From: Candidatus Hydrogenedentes bacterium UBA6118 | GTDB lineage: Bacteria; Hydrogenedentota; Hydrogenedentia; Hydrogenedentales; SLHB01 | DNA length: 64,000 nt | NCBI GenBank assembly: GCA_002422525.1 | Contig: DIWA01000015.1 | Coordinates: 33,797 to 97,796 of the forward strand | Direction: 5' to 3' | Part shown: piece after piece, positions 662-37,539 of the stretch | How the letters are laid out: each line of letters starts with the position of its first letter | Position numbering within the stretch: the stretch's first letter is position 1 | Notes under the pieces: model-generated | The model's input: only the letters and a program-made list of their open reading frames with translations | Databases searched by the model: none | Told to the model about the DNA's origin: nothing | Position numbers and translations under genes: made by a program

Positions 662-1426
662 CGGGGCGTCCTCGTGTAGCAGTTCCGGGAAGCGTTCGGC
701 CATGGCGCGGGCCTCGCGGCGCAGGTCGTCCTGGTCGGCATGCTCGAGGAAGTAGCGGACGAGGTCGCGGCCCTTGTCGAGTTGTCGCGTGTCGCGCAGC
801 AGGCGCGATCCGACGGAGGCCGTCTCGAGGGATGGGGAGAGCGCGAATGCGCGGAGGGCGCGTTCGGCGACTTCGTCGGGGCGGTCAAGCTCGCGCAGCG
901 AGATGCCGGCGTAGAGCATGCCCAGGGCTTCGGCGCGAGGGGCGTCGCGGTCGTGAGCGGCTTGTGCGAAGCGTTCGCTGAGCGTCAGCCCCGTGTCATG
1001 AAGCTGCGCTTGCTGCACGGCGCGGTGCAAATCGCGGAAGGCCGCCATGGCGGTCGAGATGTCATGGTCGAGCAGGTCGACGGCCGTGTCGAGGGCTTCG
1101 TCGAAACGTCCCTGTTCGGTGAGCAGCGCGGCAAGCTCGGCGGCGCGCCACTTGTAGAGCTCGGGGTTGTCGAAGCGGGCGGCCAAGGCTTGACGATAGG
1201 CGTCGATGGCCTCCTCAGTGCGCCCGGCGCGGGCGAGTCCGACGGCGCGCGCGCTCACGACTTCGCCCACGGCCGCATCGAGGCGCTCGACCCAGGGGCC
1301 GCCATACCGCGCGTAGGCGATGGTCGCCGCGATGAAGGCCGATCCGGTCAGCGCGAACGCGACGAGGACGGACCGGCGGAGCAACGCGACGGCGGTCTGC
1401 GGGTCGGCTGTGTCCTGGTTGTGCAT
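656..1426 (-). CDS. TPR-repeat protein with N-terminal transmembrane helix
   Basis: 256-aa ORF. It has the TM segment VLVAFALTGSAFIAATIAYA, then TPR-like helical pairs (EEAIDAYRQALAARFDNPELYKW..., GRFDEALDTAVDLL). Its stop overlaps the start of the upstream paralogue by a few nt. Confidence 0.6.
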   Translation of the reverse strand: MHNQDTADPQTAVALLRRSVLVAFALTGSAFIAATIAYARYGGPWVERLDAAVGEVVSARAVGLARAGRTEEAIDAYRQALAARFDNPELYKWRAAELAALLTEQGRFDEALDTAVDLLDHDISTAMAAFRDLHRAVQQAQLHDTGLTLSERFAQAAHDRDAPRAEALGMLYAGISLRELDRPDEVAERALRAFALSPSLETASVGSRLLRDTRQLDKGRDLVRYFLEHADQDDLRREARAMAERFPELLHEDAPE

Positions 1427-5451: not shown

Positions 5452-7077
5452 TCAGGGCGCCTCGGCGGGCCGCGCCTCGCTCAGTCCCGTGAACGGCAGC
5501 GAAGCGACGATGAAGGCCGTGCGCGCCGCGGGCTGTTCCTCGACCCAGCGGGCCAGCGTGGGGGCCGCCTCGTAGTACTTGGCGACCAGCATCCGGCCGA
5601 TGTCGGTGGCCATGAGCACCTGATCGCGGAAGGCGCGAAGGCGCGCCAGGGCTTGCGATCCGTCGCCGTAGGCGGCCTTGAGGGGGCACGTGATGGGCGT
5701 GACGGGACCGCTCGGGCCGTCGGGGGGGTCCGTACCCGCGAGCCACCCGCCTGCTTGGGAGTAGAACAGGCGGAAGGTGGCGAAGTTGTCGTAGTTTCGG
5801 GTCGTATCCGTGCAGGAGTGCATGGGGCCGTTGCTGAGGCAGCCGACGTAGTAGTGCGCGCCGCCCTCGGTGATGAACAGGCCGCAGCCGGAGCTGCCGC
5901 CCTCGGTGACGCCCTCGGTCCACATCACGTCGATCTGCCGTTCCCACGGGGCGGAGGACACATCGACGGTGCGAACGGCGCCGTAGGTGATGCGCATGTG
6001 GGAGCCCTGGGGGTGGTGCATGGCGAAGGCCTGCTCGCCCACGGCGACGGGACGGGTGGTGTAGCCGGCGTAGGCGCGGCCGAGTTCGCCCGGCGGTACG
6101 TCGCTGAGAAGGAGCAGGGTCATGTCGAGGATGGGGTTGGTGGTAAGCAGGGTCGTGCCGTCGGTGCGGGGCAGGCTCGCGAGGGCGGGCGTCTCATTCG
6201 AGTCGCACGCGGCGGCGCGGTAGTCCCAGATGACCTCGGCGACGCTCGCCTCGTCCTGGTCGGCGATGCAATGGTTGGCGGTCATGAAATAGGGCTCATG
6301 CTCAGGGGTGTCGGGGTTGTTGATCAGGATGCCGCTGCAGAGGGCCTGGTCGTAGCCGCCGTTGGTCCAGACCATGAAGCCGACCCCGGTGGAGAGGTTC
6401 TGGATGGTCGGCGAGGTCTCGCAGGCGATGTTGACGTTGCAGGGCAGGGCGATGTCGAATTGCTTGAAGAAATGCGATAAGCCGCGCACGACGAGCCGCG
6501 GGGGATCGGCGGCAGCGGATTTCGCGATGAACACGATGGCGTCGCCCTCGACCGTGGGGGTCCAGCGGCCGTCGGGGAGCGCATCCGATGCACGGTAAGG
6601 GCCGAAGGCGCGGGGGCCCGTGGGGTCGACGACCCAAATCTCGTCGCCGGGCGCGAGGGCGGAGAGATCCAGCACGGCGCGCAGGGCGAAGGCGTCGACC
6701 GATACGAGTTCGCCGACGAAGACGTTGCGGTCGTCCTCGGCGAAGACGGCGGTGAAGAGGTCGGACTCGGCGAGATCGAGCTCCATGCCGACGGCCACGG
6801 TGTGAGATTTGCCCGCGGCCTGGAAAGAGGCGGCGAATGCGTCGTTCATGCCCGCGTAGGCATCGTAGACGACGGGTTCGGCGCGTCGGTCGAGGTATTC
6901 GGCGACGCGCGCCTGGGGCAGCGGGTGGAGCAGCGCGTCGAGGGCGCTCTTGCTGGACACCGGCGGGTCGAAGGCCGTCGGAGCGGTGATGATGGGTTGT
7001 GCGAATGCCGTGCAGGCAAGGCACAGGGTCAAGGCCAGGACGGTAGCCGGAACCGATCGCCGTATGGACGTCGCCAT
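5452..7077 (-). CDS. secreted trypsin-like (S1) serine protease with C-terminal sorting-signal-like domain
   Basis: ATG at 7075-7077 has an AAGGGAGA RBS. It gives the signal peptide MATSIRRSVPATVLALTLCLACTAFA. The catalytic His is in TANHC and the Ser in GGSSGCGLF. The C-terminal 78 aa carry the shared CPLKAAYG...LRAFRDQVL...KYY..AP module. Confidence 0.7.
   Translation of the reverse strand: MATSIRRSVPATVLALTLCLACTAFAQPIITAPTAFDPPVSSKSALDALLHPLPQARVAEYLDRRAEPVVYDAYAGMNDAFAASFQAAGKSHTVAVGMELDLAESDLFTAVFAEDDRNVFVGELVSVDAFALRAVLDLSALAPGDEIWVVDPTGPRAFGPYRASDALPDGRWTPTVEGDAIVFIAKSAAADPPRLVVRGLSHFFKQFDIALPCNVNIACETSPTIQNLSTGVGFMVWTNGGYDQALCSGILINNPDTPEHEPYFMTANHCIADQDEASVAEVIWDYRAAACDSNETPALASLPRTDGTTLLTTNPILDMTLLLLSDVPPGELGRAYAGYTTRPVAVGEQAFAMHHPQGSHMRITYGAVRTVDVSSAPWERQIDVMWTEGVTEGGSSGCGLFITEGGAHYYVGCLSNGPMHSCTDTTRNYDNFATFRLFYSQAGGWLAGTDPPDGPSGPVTPITCPLKAAYGDGSQALARLRAFRDQVLMATDIGRMLVAKYYEAAPTLARWVEEQPAARTAFIVASLPFTGLSEARPAEAP
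5455..5688 (-). other. C-terminal conserved module (copy 3): CPLKAAYGDGSQALARLRAFRDQVLMATDIGRMLVAKYYEAAP... plus hydrophobic tail
   Basis: Aligns position-by-position with the C-termini of the ORFs ending at 28265 and at 30142: Cys, AAYG, [FL]RxFRDxVL, G, YY..[AS]P. Confidence 0.6.
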
Positions 7078-7331
7078 GGTTCTGAATCTCCCTTGGATGC
7101 TCACGTGATTTCACCCCCGGCAAGGAGCGGGACGCGGAGCATAACGCTCATTGGCGGCGCACTGCGCGCGCCGTCGCCCACTATACACCTTGTATCCCGA
7201 TCCCGCACAACGGGTTGCATCGGTCGCTTCCGTTGCGCCGGAAGGCATGGTAGCATCGAGGGGACGCACGAGCGTCGGGCGATTGCCCGTTGAAGGGCGG
7301 ACAGGTTGCGCATCGGCGCGAGGGGAGTGCA

Positions 7332-22832: not shown

Positions 22833-23033
22833 GCCCTATGCCATTGTATGTTGGTTGGGCCGTCAAAGTCAGCCCGCCGGCGGTCATGGGTCGCAGGCCG
22901 GGGCGGCTTGCGGGCTGTGGGATATCCGTGTGGGGAGTCTGCAAGAGGGCGCGTGTGGCGCCTCCTGGACGACGTCGGGGTGTGCGGGCTCACACGGCAA
23001 GAAGGTAGCCATGCACGCAGAGAAACGGGAAAC

Positions 23034-23073
23034 AACGCTCCTCGGGCATTCACGCCCGGGAGCGTTTTTTGTT
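23034..23073 (+). terminator. intrinsic-terminator-like hairpin plus U-tract in the 5' leader (attenuator or riboswitch expression-platform candidate)
   Basis: AACGCTCCTCGGGC (23034-23047), loop ATTCAC, GCCCGGGAGCGTT (23054-23066), then TTTTTTGTT. The U-tract ends 6 nt before the RBS GGAGGT (23080-23085) and 20 nt before the GTG start. Confidence 0.5.
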
Positions 23074-23093
23074 CCTGCTGGAGGTACCGAACC

Positions 23094-26000
23094 GTGAAGA
23101 CCAAACTCGGCGCTCGAACCTGGTTCATCGGCGCAGCCTTGCTTGCGGGAGCGGCGCTGCTGGTTGCGCCCGCGGCGCGCGCGCAGGACGACGTCCCGAC
23201 GGCGAGCTTCAACATCGAGGACGCCGTCCAGGACGGTCACTCGCTGTTGCCCACGCAGAACTGGACGCCGCTGGTCCGGCTCGAGTTGGCGTGGGACAGC
23301 CAGGACGCGCCCGCGCCGCGGGATCTGACGGGGATGGTGTATTACATCACCGGGGATCCCGTGGATGAGCGGTCGTGGAGTCGGTACGCCAGTCCGGAGA
23401 CGAAGCACCTCTATGAGTTCGCGATCATCCGGGAGGGGCAAGGCCCGGACGACGACGGCTATGGGGTGTTGGGCGACAACGACAGCGTCTGGTATGTCTG
23501 GGACGGCGAAGGCGACCCGGTCGGCGAAGTGACCGACCTGGGCGGGGCCCTGCGGTACGAGATGGACTTCGTGGGGGATGGCACGGAGGACAATCCCGAG
23601 TTCCCGATCCCGAACGGTTCCGCGGACTTTCCCGCGAGCTATTTCCTCGCGGTGCGCACGTCGGCGCTGTGGCACAACGGCATGCACATGAGCGTGCGCA
23701 TTCCGGTGGGCGGGCTCGACTGGAACCCCCGTTTCCCCGACGACTCGGCGACGGTGGACGAGGATCCGTTCGAGCCGGAGACGGCCTACTCGGCCAGTTT
23801 CGGCGCGTACGACGTGACGGGTTCGCTCACCTCCGACCAGAGTTACGTGTACACGAATACGTGGAACTACCCGAACTTCGTGTACACGCCGCAGCCGGAG
23901 TATTCGCGTCCGCGTTGGGACAGCTCGGCGACGGCGCTGCAGATCCTGAACGGCGAGTGGATTCAGCTTCGGCGGCTGTTTGCGATCGAGACGTGGTATG
24001 CGGTGATCGGGCTGAACATGCATTCAAGTTCAGCGTCCGTCATGGAGACGGCGACGCGGAGCGGGTTCGATCCGCTGCTGAATCCCGAGCCGCGCGGCGA
24101 CGTGGGCCGCGTGCGGACGGTCGCGGTGGACGGGGCCTACCCGATCGAGATGAACGTCGTCATGACGGACGTGGGCGGGGATCCGCTCGGGCCTCCGGGA
24201 AACGGCGGGTTCAATCCGCAGACTGGTCTTGAGACCATGACCTACGATGTGCTGTCCGCCGGCGGCGACATCATCGTCGACCGCGCGTACGAGGAGGACC
24301 ACGCGTTCAACGGCGTCTGGCTGTGGCGCGACGGCGGCAACAACGATTTCGACCGGCCAACGCCCGGCGCGAACGGCGCGACGTTCGGCGAGGACACGCC
24401 CGCGTTGCCGATGGGCTGGGCGATCGACGACGACCAGAACATCTTCATGCTGCCGGACGCCGGGCTCGGCGCGTACTGGGAGCATGTGGCGAACCCGCCC
24501 GGCGGCGGGGATCCCTGGTGGCGAATCACGCTGCAGTTCGGCAACAACCGCGGCGGCGCGGGGCGCATGGAGCCGACGCCGAACGGCGATGTGAACGCGC
24601 GGCCAAGCATCCAGTTCCACGATTACTTCATCACGGTGCGCGCGGACAGCGGCTACGCGGATGCGAGCGGCCGGTCGGGCGACGGCACGGGGATCACGTA
24701 CGGCGCCGAGACTCGGATGTACATCGAGCCGCGGTATACGACGCCGAGCAACGACGTGTTCGACGGTTCGATGGACATGGGCGGGCTGCTCGTGACGTCG
24801 CAGTTCCCGCTGGAGTGGTCGGGCGGCTGGCGCGAGCACCCGGCGTTGAGCCCGGTGAACGAGGACACGGGGCTGCGGCAGCAGGAGCCGTGGTGGCACC
24901 AACGCACAATGGATCGCAACAACGCGAAACTGGTGCGCTTCGGCGCCGAGATCCACGACCTCGTGATGACCTACGAGTCGAACAACGCGTTCTCGATGGC
25001 GCAGGGCGTGGACATCGATATCGCGGGCGGCGACAACTTCGGCAACCCGGCGTTCAGCGATCTGCTCGACGACCTCGGCTTTGACTTCTTCTCGATCGCC
25101 AGCTTCGCGCGGTGGATGGATCCGTTCGGGATCCGGTCGGGCGAGTTCATCGACGGCTACCGTACGGGCGTGGTGAACTGGCGGTTCGTGGACTTGGGGA
25201 TCGACGACAGCCAGAACGGCCCGATGCAGAAGCCGTATGAGACGGCGCCGTTCTTCAATCCGCTCGATCTGGCGCCGGCGGGTCCGCGTTCGTTCTTCTA
25301 TCCGAACCCGCCGCAGCAGCCGTCGCTTCCGTCGTATGCGACGTGGCCGCTTGGCGCGGGCGAATTCGCGAACAATCCGGGTATGCAGACGCTGCCTCCG
25401 GGCGAGTTCCCGCGGGAGATCAACTGGCGGCCGGCGGATCTGGGCACGCGGAAGCTGAAACAGCATATCGACGCGGACAGTCGCGCGACGGCGTTGCTGG
25501 GGTTCAACATGGCCGGCGCGAACGACCCGGTGACGAACGAGTTCGCGGCGATCTCGCTCGAGCAGATCACGGTGGCCCTGTGGGGTCCGGACACCAACAA
25601 CGACGGCGTGATGGACTTCTCGCCGGCGGACTTGAAGGCGCTGGACCCGGAGGGTCTGTCCGGCACATCCGGCGTGGCGATCTATGTCGACACGGGGAGC
25701 GGCACGTTCTCGGATCTTGCCGGGGGCGACCAGCCGCTTCCGCTGCGAAGCCTGAAGTGGGGCAGCGCGCCGGAATTCCTCGATGTGACGGGCGACGGCG
25801 AGCCGGATGACCTGAACGGCGACGGCCTGATCACCGGGCTGGACAAGGCGTGGGTGCTGCGGCTGCGTCCGCAGACAGCCTTCCGCGTGCCGGTCGAGGA
25901 CGCGAACATCGCGCCATTTGCGCGTTCGCTGCCGTCGGGCGCGGGCTCGGGCGGCGGCAAGACCGTGCTGGATCTGGGCGAAGAGATCGAGGGCGCGCCG

Positions 26001-28265
26001 TACTGGACGCAGAAGCCGCGCCTGGTGGACCTGGAGACGTATAACGAGGACGCGATCGCGCAGGCTGGACAGGGCATGGGCGACGGGTCGATTCCGGTGA
26101 CTCAGATCCCCGGCGACCCGGACGGCGGCGGCAACGCGGGTGACGACCTGTTCTTCGTAGTTCGGACGTCGGATGCAATCGGGCAGTTCCGGAAGTTCAC
26201 GGCGCTTGTGCCGGCGACGTTGCCGGAGCGGCCTGTACAGGACCGGACGGCGGGGATGCAGTTTGCGCCGTCGAACATCCCGGCCGCGGCCTATGGCAAG
26301 AACCACCCGGAGGAGTCGGGCGGTCCGTCGTTCTTCGAGCACGAGCTGATCGAAGCGAATGTGGCGGTGAAGCTGACGGATTTGACCGGGCAGGGGCAGA
26401 TGCTGTACGCGAACGGCCAGCCGACGGCGGTAATGGGTATTGACGCATCGACGAACCGCGGCGGGGGCGCGATTGTGGCGTCCGGCGAAGCGGGCGTTGG
26501 GGGTCCGGGCCAGTTCACCGCGGCGGGCGCGGGCTTCCCGCCCGGCGGGTTCGTGGGCTACCACCTGATCGATTCGGCGTATGAGTCGTACCTGATCACG
26601 GGGAACACGAACACGCAGTTGACGGTGCTGAGCGGCACGCCGCTTTCGGGGGCGTGGCGGATCGTACGTGATCCGACGTATCTGGAACAGGTTATCGTGG
26701 AGCTGTATCCGGAGGTGGAGGACGTCCAGAACTTCAACCTGCTGGAGCATCTGCTTCCGCTGAATATCAACCAGGATGTCAGCGGTGTGGCGCTGTACCG
26801 CGATAATGACATGCATCCCGACAATCAGAACGGGATCTTTGATCCGGGCGTCGACATCCCGCTGCAACTGGACTACGCGCCGTATATGATCGGCATGCAG
26901 GGCGAACCGCGGCATCAGGTGTTGTTCGTGTTCAGTTCGCCGGGAACGGATGACGTGCCTCTGCAAGGGTTCCCGGCCGGCCTGGCCAACCAGCCGCGGC
27001 GGCGCCAGGTGATCCCGGAGACGTTCGGCGCGACGCTGAGCGACCCGGACCGCGGACCGGACTTCTTCGTGGTGATGCGGGCGGCCTCGAAGGTAGAGGA
27101 GCCGGTGGCGTTCCGGGTCGGCATCGTGTCGTGGGGTCCGAACACGCCGACGGCGCCGGATCCGGACACGTTCCCGCCGCCGCCGGTGGCGACAGTGGGC
27201 GAGTTCGACATCTTCTCGGAGTTCCCGTGGGGCGGGCGCGGCCTCGGCTTCGTCAGCTTCTTTGCGGATATCCGAGACTATGACGCGCGTGACTTCAGCG
27301 GATACAACTGGGTCCGTACGCATCCGAACAAGAACGTGCGGACAAACGTCCTGACCATTGACGAACAGACGGCGCAACCGGGCGACGTTGTGATCACCTC
27401 GGTGTCCCACGACAAGTTGCCGCAGGTGACGCCGGACGGCGGGATCGTGCTGGTGATTCGCGGCAGCGGGTTCGGCACGACGCCGCGGGTGACGCTGAAC
27501 AACACGTTGCTCGAGGTGCAGTCGGCGACGGATACGTCGATCAGCGCGCAGATTCCGGGCGGGTCGACCTTCACGGACATGCTGGTGTTGACGGTTACCA
27601 ACCCGAAGACCGAGAAGACGGGTACGTGGACGGCGATTACCCTTGTTCCGGACGACGGGGGCTTCGGCGACGCGCCGTCGATCGCGTCGGTGTCGCCGAG
27701 CAGCGGCAGCGCGGCCGCGTTCCCCGTGACGATCGTCGGCGCCCGGTTCAGTGATCCGATCGTGCGGTTTGACCAGGCGGAGATGCCGATCGTTGAATGG
27801 ACGCCGACGCGCGTGGTGGTGGCGTTCCCCTCATCGGGTCTGCCCAAGACGGGCCCGTTGGACGTCACCGTGGAGAATGGCGGCTCGGGTCTGTTCGCGA
27901 CGGCGGTGGACGCGTTCACGTATCTGAATATGCCGGGGACCGGGGTGCGGCCGTGCTTCATCGCGACGGCGGCGTACGGTTCGCCGTTGTCCGGGCAGTT
28001 GGACGTGTTCCGCGCATTCCGTGACGATGTGCTGCTGAAGAGCGCGGCGGGCGCGGCGGCGGTCGACCTGTATTACACGGTGAGCCCGGGGTTCGCGGAC
28101 GCGGTTGCGGCGCACCCGGCGCTGGCGATGGCGGTGCGGGCGGCGCTGACGCCGATCGCGTGGGCGCTGAAGTGGCCTGCGTGGGCCGCCGCCGTTGCGG
28201 TCGGTCTGACGTTGTGTGCGGCGGCGGCGTGTTTGCGGCGTCGCCGGGCGCGCGCGGCCGTGTGA
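23094..28265 (+). CDS. giant secreted cell-surface protein (~1,723 aa) with tandem IPT/TIG-like domains, Ca-binding D-x-D-G motifs and C-terminal sorting-signal-like module
   Basis: GTG at 23094 follows GGAGGT by 8 nt. Signal peptide VKTKLGARTWFIGAALLAGAALLVAPAARA-QDD. Ca-loop motifs DTNNDGVMDF and DDLNGDGLITGLD. Two Ig-like IPT/TIG segments (VITSVSHDK...IRGSGFG; IASVSPSSGSAAAFPVTIVGARF). C-terminus CFIATAAYGSPLSGQLDVFRAFRDDVL...DLYYTVSP, then TM AAAVAVGLTLCAAAAC and LRRRRARAAV. Confidence 0.75.
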   Translation: MKTKLGARTWFIGAALLAGAALLVAPAARAQDDVPTASFNIEDAVQDGHSLLPTQNWTPLVRLELAWDSQDAPAPRDLTGMVYYITGDPVDERSWSRYASPETKHLYEFAIIREGQGPDDDGYGVLGDNDSVWYVWDGEGDPVGEVTDLGGALRYEMDFVGDGTEDNPEFPIPNGSADFPASYFLAVRTSALWHNGMHMSVRIPVGGLDWNPRFPDDSATVDEDPFEPETAYSASFGAYDVTGSLTSDQSYVYTNTWNYPNFVYTPQPEYSRPRWDSSATALQILNGEWIQLRRLFAIETWYAVIGLNMHSSSASVMETATRSGFDPLLNPEPRGDVGRVRTVAVDGAYPIEMNVVMTDVGGDPLGPPGNGGFNPQTGLETMTYDVLSAGGDIIVDRAYEEDHAFNGVWLWRDGGNNDFDRPTPGANGATFGEDTPALPMGWAIDDDQNIFMLPDAGLGAYWEHVANPPGGGDPWWRITLQFGNNRGGAGRMEPTPNGDVNARPSIQFHDYFITVRADSGYADASGRSGDGTGITYGAETRMYIEPRYTTPSNDVFDGSMDMGGLLVTSQFPLEWSGGWREHPALSPVNEDTGLRQQEPWWHQRTMDRNNAKLVRFGAEIHDLVMTYESNNAFSMAQGVDIDIAGGDNFGNPAFSDLLDDLGFDFFSIASFARWMDPFGIRSGEFIDGYRTGVVNWRFVDLGIDDSQNGPMQKPYETAPFFNPLDLAPAGPRSFFYPNPPQQPSLPSYATWPLGAGEFANNPGMQTLPPGEFPREINWRPADLGTRKLKQHIDADSRATALLGFNMAGANDPVTNEFAAISLEQITVALWGPDTNNDGVMDFSPADLKALDPEGLSGTSGVAIYVDTGSGTFSDLAGGDQPLPLRSLKWGSAPEFLDVTGDGEPDDLNGDGLITGLDKAWVLRLRPQTAFRVPVEDANIAPFARSLPSGAGSGGGKTVLDLGEEIEGAPYWTQKPRLVDLETYNEDAIAQAGQGMGDGSIPVTQIPGDPDGGGNAGDDLFFVVRTSDAIGQFRKFTALVPATLPERPVQDRTAGMQFAPSNIPAAAYGKNHPEESGGPSFFEHELIEANVAVKLTDLTGQGQMLYANGQPTAVMGIDASTNRGGGAIVASGEAGVGGPGQFTAAGAGFPPGGFVGYHLIDSAYESYLITGNTNTQLTVLSGTPLSGAWRIVRDPTYLEQVIVELYPEVEDVQNFNLLEHLLPLNINQDVSGVALYRDNDMHPDNQNGIFDPGVDIPLQLDYAPYMIGMQGEPRHQVLFVFSSPGTDDVPLQGFPAGLANQPRRRQVIPETFGATLSDPDRGPDFFVVMRAASKVEEPVAFRVGIVSWGPNTPTAPDPDTFPPPPVATVGEFDIFSEFPWGGRGLGFVSFFADIRDYDARDFSGYNWVRTHPNKNVRTNVLTIDEQTAQPGDVVITSVSHDKLPQVTPDGGIVLVIRGSGFGTTPRVTLNNTLLEVQSATDTSISAQIPGGSTFTDMLVLTVTNPKTEKTGTWTAITLVPDDGGFGDAPSIASVSPSSGSAAAFPVTIVGARFSDPIVRFDQAEMPIVEWTPTRVVVAFPSSGLPKTGPLDVTVENGGSGLFATAVDAFTYLNMPGTGVRPCFIATAAYGSPLSGQLDVFRAFRDDVLLKSAAGAAAVDLYYTVSPGFADAVAAHPALAMAVRAALTPIAWALKWPAWAAAVAVGLTLCAAAACLRRRRARAAV
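27954..28262 (+). other. C-terminal conserved module (copy 1) plus TM helix plus Arg-rich tail
   Basis: CFIATAAYGS...FRAFRDDVLL...GAAAVDLYYTVSPGFADAV...WAAAVAVGLTLCAAAACLRRRRARAAV. Confidence 0.6.
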
Positions 28266-28396
28266 AGGGGTCCGACGGGAGTCGGGGAAGCCCACGGTAC
28301 ATATGCTAGGACCCCTCGGGGGGTCTGGAACCGGCCTTTCCGCAGGATGCGATCTCGATCGGGGATCGCTTTGGGAAGGCCCTGAGGAGCCAACAG

Positions 28397-30772
28397 GTGA
28401 GAACGAGAATCTGGCACGTGATGCTGGTGGGCCTGTGTGGGATCGCCCTGCTGTTCGCAGCGCCCGGGGCCGAGGCGTTCTTCCCCCTGGGCGTGTTCCT
28501 GACGGATCTGGAATACGGGGATCCGTTGCGCATCCCGCTGTGGACGCTGAACTACATGGACACGAACGGGGACCGGGACGTGTCCGGAGCGAACGAGGGC
28601 ATCCCGATCACGTTCCAGGGCGGCGATGACGGATGGACCGTGCAGGAGATGCAGGCCCTGCAGGATGGGTTCGAGGTATGGGAGCGCGTGCCGTCTTCGT
28701 TCCTCGCCTTCCAGTACACCCAGCCGGTGGAGCAGGCGCTCGAGACGTCGGATGACTTGGGGTCGATCGACTTCTTCAACTACGTGGCGAATGACGCGGG
28801 CGGCGCGCTGGTTCCGGCGGGGTTCGCCGGGATCACGTTCATCTCGTATGTGGCCGAGAGCGGTTTCTTCACATACAACGGCCAGGCGATCGAGGTGACG
28901 GGGCCGCAGATCCTGGATGCGGATATCGCGATCTACGGGGATGTGATTCAGACCAGCCGCGACATTGATTTCTCGAATGCCACGGACCAGTTCGATGCGG
29001 GGGTGCCGCTGTCGGGTCTGGTGGTTCAGTTGGCGGGGATGATGGCGGGGCTTGGCCAGAGTCCGATGACCAATACCGATGAAGTGCAGGTGCAGACGGC
29101 GGGCGGCGAGCTGACGCTGCTCGTGGATCCGCTGGTGTACGCGGACCGGGTGTTCTCGGGGAACCTGCAGATGGTGGGCGTGACGCCGAGCATGTACCCG
29201 AATCTGGTGTACACGGACCTCGGGAATGACATCTACCGGCTGGCGTGGGAGGACCTCGCGCCGGACGACATCGCGGGGATCACGTTCCTGTATCCGCGGG
29301 GCGACTTGTCGAACTTCTTCACGGTGCAGCAGGAAGCGCGGTACGCGTCGCGGGCCGGGTTCCCGACGGCGCCGATCGCGGGCGGGTTCATCGAGGCCTG
29401 GTGTGACGTGGACGACAACGCGAACACGCCGCGCGTACCGATGTTCAGCACGCTGACGGGGATGTATGAGAACCAGGCGCAGTTCTCCGGGTTCTTCCGA
29501 CTGTACAACCTGTTCCGGCAGATCGAGTCGCCGACGGCCGTGCCGTTCACCGCGTCGTATACGCTTACGCTGAGCGAGCTGGAGCCGCCGGAGGGGTTCA
29601 CGGCGGACTTCTTCGACTCGCTGCACAACGGGCTGTACGCGGGCGGCGGCGGGTTTGCGTTCTCGACGAACTACCCGCATCAGACGTTCCTGGAAGGCGG
29701 CGAGAATATCATGAGCCGGGACCGGCATGATGAGGGCACGCCGCTGATGTACGATCCGGTGCGCGCGGAAGTGGTGAGCGCGGTGTCGGGGCGCACGCTC
29801 GATCAGATGCTGCCGGGAACGCGGCCGATGTTCGGCGAGTCGGATGCGCAGAACGTGTGTCCGTTGACGCTCGCGGCGCGGCTGGCGAAGACGCAGAACG
29901 GTCCGCGGCTGTTGCGGCAGTTCCGCGACGACGTGTTGCTGACGAATGCGCTGGGCGCGGCCGCGGCGGACGCCTACTACCGGATGGCGCCGACGATGAG
30001 CGCGTTCCTGATGGAGTACCCGATTGCGATGAGGACGGCGCAGGCGATGGCGGAGCTGACGGAATGGGGCATCGCGCATGCGCGGATGCTCGCGGCGCTG
30101 TTGTTGGCGGCGATCGGCGCGGCCTTCGCGATGCGGCGGCGGGTCGTACGCGCGGGCGTCGCGGCGGGATTGATCCTTGCTGCCGCGATCGTGTTCGCGG
30201 GCGGCACGGCGGACGCGCAGGCGATCGACTATTCGATCGAGAAGGCGGTCTCGCTGAGCGATGACATTCTGACCGGTGAAGTGACGTCGCTGCAGTGCCG
30301 GATGAACGACAACGGGCAGATCATCACGGACGTCTCGATCGAGATCGAGGACACGATGAAGGGCGCGTTGAATCGTACGGGGACGCTGCATTTCAGCCAG
30401 ATTGGCGGCGAAGTGAACGGCGTCACGACGTATGTACCGCAGTATCCGCGCTGGCGGCAGGGCGAGGAGGTCGTCGTGCTGATGAAGCGGAACGCGGTGT
30501 TCGGCCACATGGCGGTGTACGGCGTCGGCGGGAAGTTCGAGGTGAAGACGGACGAGGAGACGGGCAAGAAGTACGTCGTGGGTTCGACGGCGCTGGCGAA
30601 GCTGGGCCTGGATAGAGCGCGGCCGACGATAGAGAAGCGTGACGGAGCCGAGGCGTCGGAAGACGGCCCGGCGCAGGGCGTGGACCTGGACGCGTTCAAG
30701 GCGTATCTGGAGTCCGTGGCGGCGGAGCAGGCCGCGAACGAGGAGGCGGCGCGGACGGTGTCCGACGAGTAG
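28397..30772 (+). CDS. large secreted protein (791-aa ORF) with internal copy of the C-terminal sorting-like module, then an in-frame second signal-peptide-like segment and a 190-aa domain
   Basis: GTG at 28397 follows GAGGAG by 7 nt. Signal peptide VRTRIWHVMLVGLCGIALLFAAPGAEA. The module CPLTLAARLAKTQNGPRLLRQFRDDVLL...DAYYRMAP spans aa 488-578 and ends in TM MLAALLLAAIGAAFA plus MRRR. Then VVRAGVAAGLILAAAIVFAGGTADAQA and a soluble domain follow to the stop at 30770-30772. Confidence 0.65.
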   Translation: MRTRIWHVMLVGLCGIALLFAAPGAEAFFPLGVFLTDLEYGDPLRIPLWTLNYMDTNGDRDVSGANEGIPITFQGGDDGWTVQEMQALQDGFEVWERVPSSFLAFQYTQPVEQALETSDDLGSIDFFNYVANDAGGALVPAGFAGITFISYVAESGFFTYNGQAIEVTGPQILDADIAIYGDVIQTSRDIDFSNATDQFDAGVPLSGLVVQLAGMMAGLGQSPMTNTDEVQVQTAGGELTLLVDPLVYADRVFSGNLQMVGVTPSMYPNLVYTDLGNDIYRLAWEDLAPDDIAGITFLYPRGDLSNFFTVQQEARYASRAGFPTAPIAGGFIEAWCDVDDNANTPRVPMFSTLTGMYENQAQFSGFFRLYNLFRQIESPTAVPFTASYTLTLSELEPPEGFTADFFDSLHNGLYAGGGGFAFSTNYPHQTFLEGGENIMSRDRHDEGTPLMYDPVRAEVVSAVSGRTLDQMLPGTRPMFGESDAQNVCPLTLAARLAKTQNGPRLLRQFRDDVLLTNALGAAAADAYYRMAPTMSAFLMEYPIAMRTAQAMAELTEWGIAHARMLAALLLAAIGAAFAMRRRVVRAGVAAGLILAAAIVFAGGTADAQAIDYSIEKAVSLSDDILTGEVTSLQCRMNDNGQIITDVSIEIEDTMKGALNRTGTLHFSQIGGEVNGVTTYVPQYPRWRQGEEVVVLMKRNAVFGHMAVYGVGGKFEVKTDEETGKKYVVGSTALAKLGLDRARPTIEKRDGAEASEDGPAQGVDLDAFKAYLESVAAEQAANEEAARTVSDE
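29858..30142 (+). other. C-terminal conserved module (copy 2), located internally in the 791-aa ORF
   Basis: Same Cys / [FL]RxFRDDVLL / G / YY..AP / hydrophobic helix / RRR order as copy 1. Confidence 0.6.
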
Positions 30773-30823
30773 GGCGGACGTCGGTGCGGCGGCCGAGTCG
30801 AACGAGCTGGTAAGTAGTTGATC

Positions 30824-30866
30824 GCGGCGGTCTCAGGGGTTCTGGGGCCGCCGCGTTGTGTGTGTG
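30824..30866 (+). terminator. GC-rich hairpin followed by a (TG)5 / U-G-rich tract
   Basis: GCGGCGG (30824-30830) pairs with CCGCCGC (30848-30854), then GTTGTGTGTGTG. It lies 50 nt after the stop of the 791-aa ORF. Confidence 0.35.
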
Positions 30867-31121: not shown

Positions 31122-32030
31122 ATGTTGCGCGGTCTGCTTATCCGACAGGCGTTGATCGCGACGGACTTGGTCTTGGCGGGACTGGTCGTCGTGATGGCGT
31201 ACTTTGTGATGGCGCGGATCCTTGGGGATGACGCGGTGACGGCGGCGCCTGTGGAGCGGGTTGAGACCTCGACGGATGTGGGCGTGTTGCGCAAGCCGGC
31301 GGAACGCGGGGACTACGACGGGATCATCGCAGGCAATCTCTACGGTCCGGCGGCGGACGTGACGCGCGAAGATCCGGTGGAGGAGGCGGTGGTCGAGGAG
31401 CAGCCGTTGCGCCCGACGACGCTGCCGCTGAAGCTGTACGGGACGCTCGCGCTGGATCCCGAGGATCCGCTGGCGACGGCGGTGATCGAGGATGTGACGA
31501 CGCGCGTGAAGCAGACGTACTATCTGAACCAGCCGGTGAAGGATGGGTACGTGCTGCGCGAGGTGCACAAGCGCCGGGTCGTGTTGTACAACGAGTCGAC
31601 CGGGGCTCTGGAGGAGCTGGCGCAGGAGGACTTGCAGGTGGCGGCGTCCGAGACGCGGAGCGCGGCGAGTGCGCGGCCCGCGGGACGGAGTCCGGCCGGG
31701 GCGAACCAGGTGGTGGTGAACCGGCTCGACACGCAGCGCGAGCTGGAGTCAATGAACTTCGCGGAGTTCTACGCGCAGGTGAGTCCGCAGCTTGTGCGGG
31801 ACGAGGCGGGGAACGTGAAGGGCATCACGTCGCCGAATATCGACAAGGTGCCGCTGGCGCAGCGGTTCGGGTTCCAGAGCGGGGACGTCGTCAAGAAGAT
31901 CAACGGGGTGCAGATCGACAGCGAACAACGTGCGCTGGAAGTGATCAACCGTTTTCAGAATTCGAGCAGCCACTGGCTGACGATAGAGCGGAATGGCCGA
32001 GAACAGACACTCGTCGTGCGGGTGGAGTGA
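31122..32030 (+). CDS. GspC-like T2SS inner-membrane protein with C-terminal PDZ domain
   Basis: ATG at 31122. N-terminal TM LIATDLVLAGLVVVMAYFVMA. C-terminal PDZ-like segment VKGITSPNIDKVPLAQRFGFQSGDVVKKINGVQIDS. It sits immediately upstream of the secretin gene. Confidence 0.5.
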   Translation: MLRGLLIRQALIATDLVLAGLVVVMAYFVMARILGDDAVTAAPVERVETSTDVGVLRKPAERGDYDGIIAGNLYGPAADVTREDPVEEAVVEEQPLRPTTLPLKLYGTLALDPEDPLATAVIEDVTTRVKQTYYLNQPVKDGYVLREVHKRRVVLYNESTGALEELAQEDLQVAASETRSAASARPAGRSPAGANQVVVNRLDTQRELESMNFAEFYAQVSPQLVRDEAGNVKGITSPNIDKVPLAQRFGFQSGDVVKKINGVQIDSEQRALEVINRFQNSSSHWLTIERNGREQTLVVRVE

Positions 32031-32043
32031 CTGGGGACGTGGA

Positions 32044-34542
32044 ATGCTGAACTATCGAGATCCGTATGCGTGGGCGCGACGCGCGAGGAGGATCGGGCGG
32101 CGGACCGGCGTCGGGCTTGTCGCGGTCGCGACCGCGTTGGCGTTGACGGCGGGATGGGTTGCGTGGGTTCCGGCGGAGCGCGCCTGGGCGCAGGACGACG
32201 AACCGTACTACGAGGAGGAGTACATCGAGCCGGATCCGCAGGCGGAGGTGGACGAGGGGGCGGAGTACGAGGAGTACGTCGAGGAGGAGGAGCCTGTGTT
32301 GCGGCCTGTGGCGCCGCAACGGCCGGCGCCGCCGGCGCGCCCGCAGCCGATCCGGCCTTCGCGCGTACAACCGACCCAGGTGCGGCCTGGGACGACCCCG
32401 GCGGCCCCGGGGGCCGCGGCGGAGCCGAACCCGTACCGACCGAAAGAAGGGGCGGCGGCGACGGAGCCGGTGAGCATCGACTATGAGGGGGTGGAGCTGC
32501 AGGAGATCGTGAAGGCGATCGGCGCGGCGACCGGACGGAACTTTCTGCTCGACCCGCAGATCGGCGCGATCCCCGTGACGTTGATCTCGCACGCTCCGGT
32601 TCCCGCGAACATGCTGCTGGACGTGCTGCAGGCGGTGCTCGTCACGCACGGCTTCACGATGCGCGACACGCTGGACGGGAAGCTGATCAAGATTCGACCG
32701 ATTGACGAGGAGGGCGAGAATGCGCCGCTGGTGGTCGGGTCGACGGAGTCGACGGCGCGGTATGACGATTTCGTGACGCACATCGTGCCGGTGCGGTATG
32801 CGTCGGCCGAGGAGCTTGCGCGCCTGCTGCCGCGGCTCGGATCGCGGACGGCGACGGTGGACGCCTACGGGCCGACGAACACGCTGATCCTGTCGGACAA
32901 TGCGCGGGGCATTGAGAACATGCTGACGTTCCTCGCCGAGATTGACGTGCCCGGGTCGGAAGTGGTCATGGAGACGTTCACGCTGGATTACGCGCGGGCG
33001 GAAGTGGTGGCGGAGCAGATCCGGGAAGTGTTGATGGGCGACGAGGGCGTCGCAGGGGATCGGGCGGCAGCGGTGGCTCGGGCGCGGGCCCCGCAACCGG
33101 TGCGGCCGACGGTGCGGACGCCGGTGAGCGCGCAGGCGCAGCAGACGATCATCGGATCCGAGGAGCCGGTGTTGCAGATCGTGGCGGTGGATCGGCTGAA
33201 CATGCTGATCGTGCGGGCGAACGAGTCGCTGATGCAGCAGGTGCGATCGCTGGTGGATCGGCTGGACGTGCAGACGCCGATCGAGGCGAACAACCTGCAC
33301 GTGTATCCGTTGCTGAACGCGGACGCGGAGTCGGTGGCGGAGAAGCTGAACGCGGTGATCGGGCTGACGCCGCGGGCGGCGTCGGACCAGGGAGGGGGCG
33401 ACGCGCAGGCGGCGATCACCGAGGTGCAGCCGTTCGAGAAGAAGGTGCTGGTCGAGGCGTATCCGGAGACGAAGTCGCTGTTGGTCGTTGCGGCGCCGCA
33501 GGACTACGAGGTGATCAAGGAGCTGATCGCGCAGTTGGATGTGGCGCGACGTCAGGTGCACATCGAAGCGTTGATCATGGAGGTCAACATCCAGGATCGC
33601 TACCAGCTCGGGGTTGAGCTGAGCTCGTTGAGCGCGGAAGACGGATTCGCGCTGAATAACGTGATCTCGTTGGCGAACATCATGGCGAACGGGCCGCTGG
33701 CGGGCGTGGGCGGATCGGACAGTCCGGTGTTGACGACCGGCGTGCTGGACGGCGTGGTGTATCTGCCGGTGGCGGGCGAGGACGGCGCATTGACGCTGCA
33801 GGCGTTCCCAAAGATCCCGCTGTTGCTGACGGCGCTGGACTCAATCACGGACCTGGACGTGTTGTCGCAGCCGTTGCTGACGACGGTGGACAACGAGGAA
33901 GGGAAGGTGACGATCGGTCAGGAGGTGCCGGTGACAACGGGGACGCAGTCCTCGCTGAACCAGAGCGCGTCGAACAGCAGCGTTTACAGCCGGATCGAGC
34001 GCAAGGACGTCGGCATCAAGATGACGGTGCAGCCGCAGATCAGCGAGGGCGACAACATCTTCCTGGAGCTGGAGGTGGAAGTGTCGCAGCCGATCCAGAG
34101 CTCGGTGGGGGCGGATCCGAACATTGTGGGCCCGACGTTCTCGAAGTCGAACATCCAGACGCCGCTGATCGTGCGCGATGGATCGACGGCGGTTGTGGGC
34201 GGTCTGATCAGCGAGAGCATCGATCGGTCGACGCGACAGACGCCGTATTTCGGCGATGTGCCGGTGGTCGGGTGGCTGTTTCGGCGGAAGAACGACCAAC
34301 GGAGCAAGCGCAACCTCGTGGTGTTGGTGACCCCGCACGTGATCAAGGAGGGGGTCGACACGGACCGGATCACGGACTACCGACTGGACGAGTTCGGAGA
34401 GGCGAATGCGGATGTCGTGTTTGAGCAAGGGTTTGTGGAACGGATCCGGCGACGTCACGAGACGCGCACGCAGCACCATCCGAGCGGGTCGCGCGTGGAG
34501 CGTCTGCGCACAAACGAGTTTGATCGAGGGGAACTGCGGTAG
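32044..34542 (+). CDS. gspD: type II secretion system secretin GspD
   Basis: About 830 aa. Signal peptide RRIGRRTGVGLVAVATALALTAGWVAWVPAERAWA, a long Pro/Ala-rich linker, N0-N3 secretin-N domains, and the C-terminal secretin domain (VVGGLISESIDRSTRQTPYFGDVPVVGWLFRRKNDQRSKRNLVVLVTPHVI). Confidence 0.85.
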   Translation: MLNYRDPYAWARRARRIGRRTGVGLVAVATALALTAGWVAWVPAERAWAQDDEPYYEEEYIEPDPQAEVDEGAEYEEYVEEEEPVLRPVAPQRPAPPARPQPIRPSRVQPTQVRPGTTPAAPGAAAEPNPYRPKEGAAATEPVSIDYEGVELQEIVKAIGAATGRNFLLDPQIGAIPVTLISHAPVPANMLLDVLQAVLVTHGFTMRDTLDGKLIKIRPIDEEGENAPLVVGSTESTARYDDFVTHIVPVRYASAEELARLLPRLGSRTATVDAYGPTNTLILSDNARGIENMLTFLAEIDVPGSEVVMETFTLDYARAEVVAEQIREVLMGDEGVAGDRAAAVARARAPQPVRPTVRTPVSAQAQQTIIGSEEPVLQIVAVDRLNMLIVRANESLMQQVRSLVDRLDVQTPIEANNLHVYPLLNADAESVAEKLNAVIGLTPRAASDQGGGDAQAAITEVQPFEKKVLVEAYPETKSLLVVAAPQDYEVIKELIAQLDVARRQVHIEALIMEVNIQDRYQLGVELSSLSAEDGFALNNVISLANIMANGPLAGVGGSDSPVLTTGVLDGVVYLPVAGEDGALTLQAFPKIPLLLTALDSITDLDVLSQPLLTTVDNEEGKVTIGQEVPVTTGTQSSLNQSASNSSVYSRIERKDVGIKMTVQPQISEGDNIFLELEVEVSQPIQSSVGADPNIVGPTFSKSNIQTPLIVRDGSTAVVGGLISESIDRSTRQTPYFGDVPVVGWLFRRKNDQRSKRNLVVLVTPHVIKEGVDTDRITDYRLDEFGEANADVVFEQGFVERIRRRHETRTQHHPSGSRVERLRTNEFDRGELR

Positions 34543-36302: not shown

Positions 36303-37539
36303 ATACCAGGCCATAGCGCGGAGCTCGGGCAAGCGGGTGAAGGGCGTGATCGACGCCGACTCGCCTGCGGCGGCGCGACGCAAACTGCGCGAACAGGACA
36401 TGATGCCGACGGCGGTATCGGAGTCGTTCGGCGGCGGCGGGGCGAAGCCGGCGGGGCGTGCGAGGTCGGCGAACGGGTCGGGCAAGGCGCCGGCGGGGGG
36501 ATTCGGGCGCGTTCCGCAGCACGAAGTGTCTGTGATGACGCGGCAGATGGCGGTGTTGTTGCAGGCGGGGATGCCGTTGGTCGAGGCGCTGTCGGCGCTG
36601 ATCGAGCAGACGGCGAACGTGCGGCTGAAGAAGATCATTTACGACATTCGCGACCGGGTGAACACGGGCGCGCGGATGGCGGATGCGCTGGGCGCGCACC
36701 GGCGGGTGTTCTCCGAGTTGTACATCAACATGGTCGGCGCGGGCGAGGCCAGCGGGGCGTTGGAGCAGGTGCTGTTCCGGCTGGCGGACATGCAGGAGCG
36801 ACAGGTGCGGCTGTCGCGGCGGCTCCGCAGCACGATGATGTATCCGGCGTTCATGGCGGTCGTGGGCGTGAGCGTGGTCTCGTTCATGATGGTGGTGATC
36901 GTGCCGAAGATCACGGCGCTCTTCGACAAGCAAGGGCGGGAACTGCCGGCGATCACCGATTTCCTGATCGGCGTGTCTCGGTTTGTCGGGAACTACTGGC
37001 CGGCGTTGGTCCTGGCGGTGGTCGGGTCGTTTGCGTTGTGGCGGATGTGGGTGCGACGTCCGGCGGGGCGCCTGCAGTGGGACCGGCTGAAACTGCGCGC
37101 GCCGCTGTATGGGCCGTTGTACGTGAAGATCATCAGCGGCCGCATCGCGCGGACGCTGGGCACGATGCTGAGCAGCGGGCTGACGATGATGACGGCGCTC
37201 GAAGTGGTGAAGTCCGTCGTAGGCAACGCAGTGATTGAGTCCTCGATGGAGGACGTGAAGGCGAACGTACGGCGCGGCAAGGACCTCGCGGTGCCGCTGC
37301 GGGAGATGGGGGTGTTCCCGTCGATGATGCTGAGCATGATCGAGCTGGGACAACGCAGCGGCGAACTCGAAGGGATGCTGCTCAAGGTGGCGGACACCTA
37401 CGACGACGAAGTGGAGATGAGCGTAGACGGTCTGGTGAGTCTGCTCGAACCGGCGATGATCGTGGTGATGGCGCTGATCGTCGGGTTCCTGGTAATCGCG
37501 ATCCTGCTGCCGATCATGGACATGAGCAGCGGATTCTGA
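36289..37539 (+). CDS. gspF: T2SS inner-membrane platform protein GspF
   Basis: 416 aa with a duplicated GspF/PilC domain (two copies of the conserved periplasm-facing loop) and three TM segments. Its start overlaps the gspE stop. Confidence 0.9.
   Translation: MAVYEYQAIARSSGKRVKGVIDADSPAAARRKLREQDMMPTAVSESFGGGGAKPAGRARSANGSGKAPAGGFGRVPQHEVSVMTRQMAVLLQAGMPLVEALSALIEQTANVRLKKIIYDIRDRVNTGARMADALGAHRRVFSELYINMVGAGEASGALEQVLFRLADMQERQVRLSRRLRSTMMYPAFMAVVGVSVVSFMMVVIVPKITALFDKQGRELPAITDFLIGVSRFVGNYWPALVLAVVGSFALWRMWVRRPAGRLQWDRLKLRAPLYGPLYVKIISGRIARTLGTMLSSGLTMMTALEVVKSVVGNAVIESSMEDVKANVRRGKDLAVPLREMGVFPSMMLSMIELGQRSGELEGMLLKVADTYDDEVEMSVDGLVSLLEPAMIVVMALIVGFLVIAILLPIMDMSSGF

Follow-up and report, generated by a model that had tools for sequence, protein, structure and literature searches.

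In a 64,000-nucleotide stretch of contig DIWA01000015.1 from Candidatus Hydrogenedentes bacterium UBA6118, referred to here as the window, an open reading frame (ORF) of 791 amino acids (aa) joins in one gene a domain resembling matrix metalloproteinases (MMPs) and a domain with the predicted fold of tissue inhibitors of metalloproteinases (TIMPs) and NTR modules. The two are separated by a membrane hairpin, in which a sorting-type module with its transmembrane (TM) segment and arginine cluster is followed by a second signal peptide-like segment. We read the gene as coding for a precursor with two ectodomains that originated by an ancient fusion, from which a TIMP-like partner would be released, while the tagged remainder would be cargo of a type II secretion system; to this reading as a whole we assign a probability of about 0.6. 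Behind it stand the following observations: a single gene that is conserved, a hairpin that is likewise conserved and includes a signal peptidase-type site, the two folds, and a recurrent genomic coupling of the tail domain to metzincins. The gene and its parts are as follows.

28384..28389 (+), Shine-Dalgarno-like GAGGAG, 7 nt ahead of the GTG start codon
28397..30772 (+), whole ORF, precursor or polyprotein, 791 aa, including the stop codon (ORF list, homologue comparison)
28397..28477 (+), N-terminal Sec signal peptide, residues 1-27 (…APGAEA|FFPLG; conservation, and low predicted local distance difference test score, pLDDT, at residues 18-27)
28478..29311 (+), matrixin (MMP)-like domain, residues 28-305
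29027..29059 (+), degenerate zinc-binding motif QLAGMMAGLGQ in place of HExxHxxGxxH, residues 211-221
29312..29845 (+), beta-rich middle domain, residues 306-483 (pLDDT mostly >90, no Pfam match)
29846..30076 (+), CFI-box-like helical module, residues 484-560 (NF041770 at 36.9 bits, conservation, predicted helices 489-560)
30080..30130 (+), TM1, residues 562-578, hydrophobic core M564-A578, predicted stop-transfer helix
30131..30151 (+), Arg-rich loop MRRRVVR, residues 579-585, predicted to be cytoplasmic and to double as the n-region of the internal signal peptide
30152..30217 (+), TM2, h- and c-region of the putative internal signal peptide, residues 586-607 (conserved A605-x-A607, model pLDDT, profile alignment)
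30218..30643 (+), NTR/TIMP-like OB-fold domain, residues 608-749 (N-terminal helix, beta-barrel, helix)
30644..30769 (+), acidic linker, residues 750-763, and long C-terminal helix, residues 764-791

An earlier note, made from the letters of the window, had pointed out that the frame does not end at a sorting-like module and continues into a second signal peptide-like segment and a tail. This proved correct. Past Met579 (ATG 30131-30133) the frame runs on as MRRRVVRAGVAAGLILAAAIVFAGGTADAQAIDY / MRRRVVRAGVAAGLILAAAIVFAGGTADAQAIDYSIEK... without a stop until TAG at 30770-30772, and the order along it is CFI-box-like module, TM1, Arg cluster, second hydrophobic segment with its AxA site, and a tail of 184 aa. 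Searching 5.8 billion proteins disclosed 28 homologues that share 31-95% identity with the query, and all those bearing names belong to Candidatus Hydrogenedentes. Twenty-seven of them are 758-869 aa long, most spanning 88-100% of the query, and all 27 are continuous; the odd one, P0028, is a frameshifted copy of P0026. Homologues combined with additions from a profile search were clustered at 50% identity into 84 diverged representatives, and the junction composed of a hydrophobic helix, an Arg/Lys cluster, a second hydrophobic helix and A-x-A is kept in a single frame in every one of them. Furthermore, a species scan with one genome per species gave 68 loci with 66 complete genes. Profile matches to the MMP-like, CFI-like and tail parts share one stop-free frame in 66 of the 68; one of the other two is truncated by a contig end, and one has a different, stand-alone arrangement. 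The tail profile matches the window frame with E=1e-63.

The occurrence of the second signal peptide together with the tail is far beyond chance, and the fused gene is genuine and conserved phylum-wide in Hydrogenedentota. A two-TM hairpin protein with an extra C-terminal ectodomain, the first of three readings offered in the earlier note, is thereby upheld as the gene structure (continuous in 27/27, 84/84 and 66/66). The comparison of orthologues suggested there found them fused throughout. The same note had named two findings that together would speak against its proposals, namely uniformly continuous orthologues and an absence of stand-alone tail homologues. The first was observed; the second was not, stand-alone homologues being plentiful.

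The sorting-like module corresponds to the NCBIfam model NF041770 (CFI_box_CTERM), which scores 36.9 bits at residues 504-550 (profile positions 17-63 of 69). This is below the curated cutoff of 40 bits and counts against membership of the window protein in the CFI-box family; scores above the cutoff are reached by orthologue P0020 (43.3 bits), by a giant neighbouring protein (80.4 bits) and by another protein of the window, ORF 5452..7104 (48.1 bits). The Cys-Phe-Ile box (CFIATAAYG) was not found in the window protein, which carries VCPLTLAARL instead, with VCPLN as the family consensus. Cys488 (29858-29860), R507, R510 and D511 are invariant in 29 sequences and at least 90% conserved in the 84. 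By the criteria given for tripartite sorting signals in bioRxiv 10.1101/2023.06.07.544157, the components are all present: a conserved signature motif, TM1 (residues 564-578), RRR (residues 580-582) and a signal peptide (residues 1-27). Unlike such C-terminal signals, however, they lie inside the protein, with 213 residues following the Arg cluster. The module is likewise internal in all 84 family members, which bears out the earlier statement that it can sit inside a protein.

The second hydrophobic segment has the features of a signal peptide, with RRRVVR as the n-region, AGVAAGLILAAAIVFAGG as the h-region and TADA as the c-region. At position -3, Ala is found in 69 of the 84 sequences and a small residue in 81, and position -1 is occupied by Ala in 75 and by Gly in 7 (Ala or Gly in 82/84). 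The best 8-residue window of the loop contains on average 4.4 K/R, with a minimum of 3 and ~0 D/E, and is followed by an uncharged run of ~18 residues on average. AlphaFold pLDDT is <50 at residues 580-608, as low as at residues 18-27 of the N-terminal signal peptide, and low confidence in the AlphaFold2 model is limited to these two segments and a few loops. In addition, the alignment of a profile made from stand-alone tail homologues together with their signal peptides begins with profile position 1 at M579. The predicted signal peptidase I cut falls between 30217 and 30218 (A605-D606-A607|Q608) and would leave QAIDY as the mature N-terminus of the tail. The AxA site claimed previously is therefore present, although the conserved site lies two residues upstream of the proposed AQA|I. 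According to the positive-inside rule, the Arg loop should be cytoplasmic and the AxA site should face the periplasm. In its geometry the junction corresponds to a stop-transfer helix and, behind it, a cleavable signal peptide that would re-initiate export.

The main competing explanation is a hairpin that remains uncut, in which TM1 and TM2 are permanent and both ectodomains stay tethered at the outer face of the inner membrane without processing by signal peptidase. The single continuous ORF found everywhere fits this arrangement, a predicted template modelling score (pTM) of 0.80 for the full chain suggests a defined disposition of the domains, and the uncharged run of TM2, at ~18 residues, is enough to cross a membrane. 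However, a permanent hairpin does not explain why positions -3 and -1 are small in 81-82 of the 84 sequences, often after a Pro or Gly helix breaker, nor why the spacing to the first helix equals that behind the cleavable signal peptides of stand-alone homologues. We consider it rather unlikely.

Structure prediction of the tail, advised in the earlier note, returned a confident model of an OB domain of the NTR/TIMP type (AlphaFold2 with a 25-sequence alignment, pLDDT 94.4, pTM 0.88). In it, an OB beta-barrel is accompanied by a short N-terminal helix and two long ones. The nearest structures are N-TIMP-3, NtA, NTR and TIMP-1, consistent with the NTR fold, and NTR/TIMP structures stand ~3 Z units above every other OB fold. 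A VxLDxFKxYL motif in the C-terminal region is conserved in stand-alone homologues too. No Pfam or NCBIfam family was found in the tail; matches to Pfam ATP-grasp_5 and NtA (E=0.17) are below cutoff. The ATP-grasp_5 match (E 8e-4 to 6e-3) was taken as chance, given that the confident model is an OB barrel. On the evidence of the model, the tail resembles the NTR/TIMP module at the level of fold; this is no claim of homology, and the tail does not qualify as a member of the TIMP family proper.

The N-terminal part starts with a signal peptide around whose end A25, A27, F28, P30 and G32 are conserved. We also observed that the mature N-terminus FFPxG (28478..28492, residues 28-32) is invariant or nearly so at F28, P30 and G32. 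The modelled domain behind it is nearest in fold to MMP-2, -9, -12 and -20 and retains the Met-turn (M266) and DLAPDDIAGITFLYPR, so that a matrixin fold with its Met-turn is predicted for the window protein. The family profile matches MMPs weakly (E 0.025), collinearly across the matrixin motifs AFxxW, HExGHxLGLxH and DDIxGIxxxY. In a Pfam scan, PF00413 (Peptidase_M10; gathering score 24 bits) gave no match in the window protein; orthologues P0020 (25.2) and P0045 (35.5) pass and P0011 (21.8) fails. The MMP-like domain of the window lacks every zinc ligand and the catalytic Glu, and judged by these residues the protein is a catalytically dead pseudo-protease. HExxHxxGxxH is intact in 42 of the 84 representatives (43 with a relaxed pattern) and in 30 of the 66 genomes. 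No pro-domain or cysteine switch is present, and HExxH-intact orthologues would therefore be produced without built-in latency. The identity of both domains, MMP-like and TIMP/NTR-like, was missed in the earlier note.

A profile search with the tail through 1.84 billion cluster representatives gave 15,271 cluster proteins at E <=1e-3 and 5,703 at <=1e-10. Fused forms of ~780-830 aa dominate the top of the matches, and many complete proteins of 160-215 aa, with a Met start and a signal peptide, appear lower down. In these the domain starts 5-8 residues past the predicted cleavage site. Judging from such sequences, most tail homologues outside the fused family are stand-alone secreted proteins. 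Ten of them were scanned, and no Pfam or NCBIfam family was found. Searches for tail homologues in phage and plasmid collections (tblastn) and a PHROGs scan found none.

Neighbourhoods were surveyed at seven stand-alone loci, three of them from related Myxococcota, taken from a search returning 17 proteins. In all seven, a gene with HExxHxxGxx[HD] is adjacent or one short ORF downstream; L010, with the zinc motif at a contig edge, is an ambiguous case. Pfam M10 scores above cutoff in L003, L004, L009 and L011. The related Myxococcota loci L003, L005 and L009 have two matrixin-like genes each, as a tandem pair in L003 and L005, and the L003 pair matches NF041905 ('myxosortase-dependent metalloprotease, MXAN_2677/MXAN_2678 family') with 342 and 339 bits. 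L004 carries a 1001-aa M10 protein with a tail of the type IX secretion system (T9SS). The M10 protein of L011, encoded beside a PilM/GspL-like gene, has a canonical CFI-box (83.9 bits), and L080 has a metzincin that ends in Cys...TM...RRRRR, of the MYXO-CTERM type. As an independent fusion, P0113 has two NTR-like domains directly joined to the N-terminus of a matrixin. The tail family is thus linked to metzincins in four arrangements: operon, N-terminal fusion, hairpin fusion and a split CFI-box version. The recurrent unit is a secreted protein with a predicted TIMP fold and a metzincin with a C-terminal sorting tag.

In two of the Myxococcota loci, a gene for a CPBP (Rce1-like) intramembrane protease lies by gltX (L003 5737..7485, L005 5742..6515), and the stand-alone TIMP-like gene and MXAN_2677/2678-type pair follow ~1.5 kb downstream of it. 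The CPBP gene matches myxosortase-type models weakly and is called as a fusion with gltX in L003.

The tail could instead be an OB-fold binding module with no part in protease control, whose ligand might be a glycan, the giant neighbour or a component of type II secretion; its likeness to TIMPs would then be a generic OB likeness. In favour of this, the window clade has a dead protease motif and yet a tail of equal conservation, TIMP/NTR structures show 6-15% identity to it, and the giant gene is a conserved neighbour. Such a module does not account for a metzincin link that recurs in four arrangements, nor for the lead of ~3 Z units that NTR/TIMP structures have over other OB folds, and we regard this explanation as unlikely.

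Two further proposals can be put aside. An internal start at ATG 30131, the third reading of the earlier note, would make the one mRNA yield a small secreted protein as a separate product; it suits the textbook n-, h- and c-regions that follow the ATG and the exact alignment of Met1 of the stand-alone profile at M579. Met is found there, however, in 4 of the 84 representatives, the 77%-identical orthologue P0002 has Leu, and the 15 nt upstream hold no Shine-Dalgarno-like sequence, unlike those ahead of the GTG start, nor was a promoter-like site seen; this start was rejected as highly improbable. A sequencing or assembly error, or a recent stop-codon loss in one assembly, is suggested by the unusual architecture only and is hardly credible, as the identical protein was found in several independent assemblies (contigs of 169 kb and 208 kb) and no break in the frame is seen in homologues from different samples, whose identity ranges from 95% through 77% to ~30%.

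With the two-ectodomain precursor as the preferred reading, the following scheme is proposed. An ancient in-frame fusion would have joined a metzincin gene carrying a Cys/TM/Arg sorting tag to the gene of a small secreted TIMP-like protein, and the signal peptide of the second gene would have been retained as TM2. The product would then read Sec signal peptide, MMP-like and beta-rich domains, CFI-box-like module, TM1, Arg cluster, TM2, and TIMP/NTR-like OB domain. Sec export would be begun by the N-terminal signal peptide, TM1 would halt transfer and leave the Arg cluster in the cytoplasm, and TM2 would restart export in the N-in/C-out orientation. Signal peptidase I would cut after A605-D-A607, setting free a periplasmic TIMP-like domain with a free N-terminus, in a 1:1 ratio to the MMP-like domain. 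This domain may bind the MMP-like domain, as a latency factor or inhibitor if HExxH is intact and as a structural partner if it is dead. The adjacent type II secretion system probably takes the tagged N-terminal part and the giant CFI-box protein as its cargo.

The idea of a fusion of two ancestral genes, the second reading in the earlier note, holds as an account of origin, with stand-alone tail homologues found beside tagged metzincin genes; as a recent loss of a stop codon it fails, the fusion being ancient and phylum-wide. A metzincin with a TM-RRR tag, joined in frame to a partner with its signal peptide, would yield the 791-type architecture. That in-frame fusions of adjacent genes do occur is shown by a TM-RRR-signal peptide join in P0088 (L012 6001..11508), in which a giant and a 791-type protein are continuous through ...TFSRRRFRSFTLLLVLTLLFAVTPGQA|FFPKGG as a three-part precursor. 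In L012 a seemingly separate 902-aa upstream gene is parted from P0088 only by a scaffold run of N.

The neighbouring features that bear on export are as follows.

22848..28265 (+), giant protein, 1805-aa ORF with TIG domains and a terminal CFI-box, TM and RRRR; conserved upstream partner
30823..30855 (+), terminator-like hairpin with a 15-bp stem including 11 G-C pairs, 50 nt past the stop codon
30957-32030 (+), gspC, directly downstream of the 791-aa ORF
31993-34542 (+), gspD
34548-36302 (+), gspE
36289-37539 (+), gspF

The giant ORF stops 7 residues past its Arg cluster (RRRR), in accordance with the earlier observation that the module ends this protein; its true start is probably internal. 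Giant and 791-type genes adjoin in L001, L002, L006, L007 and L008, and a giant homologue is found upstream in 39 of 49 genomes with enough flanking sequence. A CFI profile match was obtained in 11 of these 39 giants. Genes gspC, gspD, gspE, gspF and gspG and pseudopilin genes follow downstream in the window and in 4 of 5 inspected loci (the same gsp order in L001, L002, L007 and L008), and gspD together with gspE was found downstream in 35 of 48 genomes. The strong terminator-like hairpin before gspC suggests a shared transcription unit for the giant and 791-aa genes, apart from the type II genes or attenuated before them. GlyGly-CTERM and MYXO-CTERM proteins arrive at the cell surface only with the help of a type II secretion system (bioRxiv 10.1101/2023.06.07.544157), and by analogy a similar route is plausible for CFI-box proteins.

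The C-terminal tags of the giants vary. A CFI-box, TM and basic cluster are present in the window, L001, L007 and L008, and the giants of L006 (1..5631) and L012 (6001..11508) have a short Cys-Ala/Gly-Gly... motif, TM and basic tag with no CFI helical domain. A third CFI-box protein of the window, ORF 5452..7104 on the reverse strand (550 aa), is a trypsin-like serine protease (Pfam Trypsin_2, 37.7 bits) that ends in CFI_box_CTERM (48.1 bits) with the same 'CPL' variant and no clear TM helix or Arg cluster after it. The canonical CFI_box_CTERM of L011 (1267..2304, 83.9 bits) also ends its protein without a hydrophobic TM (…LKPLVGIARRMTKSE*). At 1264..1266 of this locus an in-frame TGA divides the gene for matrixin, CarboxypepD_reg and CFI-box into two called genes. 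A pseudogene, an error or a recoded TGA are possible, and the sequence of this metagenome-assembled genome (MAG) seems lower in G+C.

Several points weigh against the reading of a processed precursor with a TIMP-like partner. Cleavage after A607, 1:1 release, binding of the MMP-like domain and type II secretion are steps that we infer from sequence. The likeness to TIMPs is at fold level only, with 6-15% identity, a Foldseek E of ~4e-3 and a target-normalised template modelling score of ~0.5. Sequence-profile searches of the PDB with tail alignments returned no TIMP or NTR chain, and the Cys1-x-Cys3 of TIMPs and their disulfides were not found, nor any conserved Cys in the tail. Mean pairwise identity of the tail is 0.368 in HExxH-dead members and 0.347 in intact ones; tail conservation being equal in both, inhibition of catalysis cannot be its sole role, and in the window protein the tail cannot be restraining catalysis. 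Type II secretion genes lie downstream of the gene in 73% of genomes, in 12 of 24 HExxH-dead and 23 of 24 intact members. No CPBP/myxosortase-type sorting enzyme was found within the 64-kb window. The hydrophobic core of TM1 is just 15 residues long, and the whole-chain AlphaFold2 pTM of 0.80 is the sole model measure bearing on the arrangement of tail and MMP-like domain. Finally, the CFI-boxes without a TM in L011 and ORF 5452..7104 may mean that the box is a helical module and not the sorting signal itself.

The nearest described system is the Mtz-Tim pair of Listeria monocytogenes, a secreted metzincin and a TIMP-like lipoprotein (Boichis et al. 2021, PMC8235301), whose authors found no earlier record of bacterial TIMP-like proteins and report an ordinary type I signal peptide in Firmicute homologues of Tim. 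Both systems genetically link a bacterial metzincin with a small exported protein of predicted TIMP-like fold, and the TIMP-like part is first tethered to the membrane and then proteolytically released, a release which is predicted in our case. In Listeria the genes are separate, mtz followed by tim, whereas here one ORF is found. Tim is a lipoprotein freed by Mtz, in contrast to the TM hairpin tether and predicted signal peptidase I release of the window protein. The Listeria locus is tied to phages and mobile elements in Firmicutes; the window family gave no match to phage records or PHROGs.

To our knowledge, TIMPs and NTR modules are regarded as animal inventions, and Listeria Tim is the only bacterial TIMP-like protein found in our literature search. 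The tail shares with animal TIMPs a mature N-terminus made by (here predicted) signal peptide cleavage, ~5 residues before the first helix. Unlike animal TIMPs and NTR modules (TIMPs, agrin NtA, PCOLCE, complement C345C), it has no Cys1-x-Cys3, disulfides or detectable sequence similarity, and unlike in the animal MMP/TIMP system the window protease is without zinc ligands and both domains are in one polypeptide. The resemblance to animal TIMPs is one of predicted fold, and common descent is not claimed.

The window protein agrees with the MYXO-CTERM/myxosortase, GlyGly-CTERM/rhombosortase and CFI-box-CTERM systems in its invariant Cys motif, TM, Arg cluster and N-terminal signal peptide. Also as in these, several such proteins occur per genome (three CFI-box proteins in the window), type II genes are adjacent, and the metzincins beside stand-alone partners are MXAN_2677/2678-type myxosortase-dependent proteases. 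It differs from them in having an internal tag, which ends 213 residues before the C-terminus, carries CPLT for the CFI motif and scores just under the NF041770 cutoff. Furthermore, the CFI-box is a helical domain of ~70 aa and not a short motif, and is TM-free in L011 and ORF 5452..7104. A mid-protein sorting signal is known as midcut-by-XrtH (NF033207), a PEP-CTERM-like signal with the exosortase XrtH. Its model does not reach the cutoff of 45 bits in the window protein (18.5 bits, E 0.0016, residues 538-645 across the hairpin), and the identity was rejected, the match probably reflecting TM composition; it serves as an analogy only. Our literature search found no papers on CFI-box, midcut-by-XrtH or MXAN_2677.

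Polyproteins with internal signal peptides include flavivirus and bunyavirus glycoprotein precursors and the FbcH cytochrome b/c1 precursor of Bradyrhizobium. In these, as predicted here, a TM, a positive loop and an internal signal peptide processed by signal peptidase result in two exported products of a single ORF, at fixed stoichiometry. The viral polyproteins depend on host endoplasmic reticulum signal peptidase, and the rare bacterial cases are respiratory complexes, not a protease with its partner; a literature search on bacterial internal-signal-peptide polyproteins found only a virology review. Serralysin inhibitors (Pseudomonas APRin/Inh, MEROPS I38) are named as the known bacterial analogue in PMC8235301. 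The tail is comparable to them as a presumed periplasmic protein encoded with a bacterial metzincin, and 1:1 binding through an N-terminal segment is a feature of APRin/Inh; these have a different fold and are encoded separately.

Each ingredient has a precedent. The combination of MMP-like and TIMP-like domains in one bacterial ORF through a tag-signal peptide hairpin, conserved phylum-wide at the head of a type II operon, appears to be undescribed, as does the size of the unannotated TIMP-fold family. More tentatively, and as less likely than not, we suggest a widespread and so far unrecognised bacterial counterpart of the MMP/TIMP system, in which ~15,000 clusters would be TIMP-fold partners or inhibitors of tagged matrixin-like metzincins and would engage them through an N-terminus made by signal peptidase; Hydrogenedentota would carry the pair as one hairpin polyprotein, with 1:1 delivery and an internal CTERM-type tag ahead of type II secretion.

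A very large unmodelled bacterial family with a predicted TIMP/NTR fold, repeatedly wired to matrixin-like proteases, would allow tests in bacteria of how protease/inhibitor pairing arose and what its logic is, among other places at the tractable MXAN_2677/2678 locus of Myxococcus xanthus. Candidates for polyproteins that an internal signal peptide divides are rare in bacteria, and the junction is one of them; it is also a natural experiment on whether CTERM-type tags must be C-terminal. If the more tentative suggestion above is true, such a sorting tag can act internally and an MMP/TIMP-like system is widespread in bacteria. The findings also give a first clue to the function of two conserved 'hypothetical' genes heading a type II secretion operon of an uncultured phylum.

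In addition, some antisense ORFs are very long, for example 28073..30508 (811 aa), which faces the studied gene; they look like by-products of a 67% G+C content and not like genes. GC skew is positive (0.09-0.24) in all 2-kb bins of the 64 kb. The Hydrogenedentota-type gene was also observed in MAG records titled 'uncultured Nitrospiraceae/Nitrospirales' or 'Bathyarchaeia archaeon' (L016, L020, L024, L031, L032 and others), which are probably mislabelled bins.

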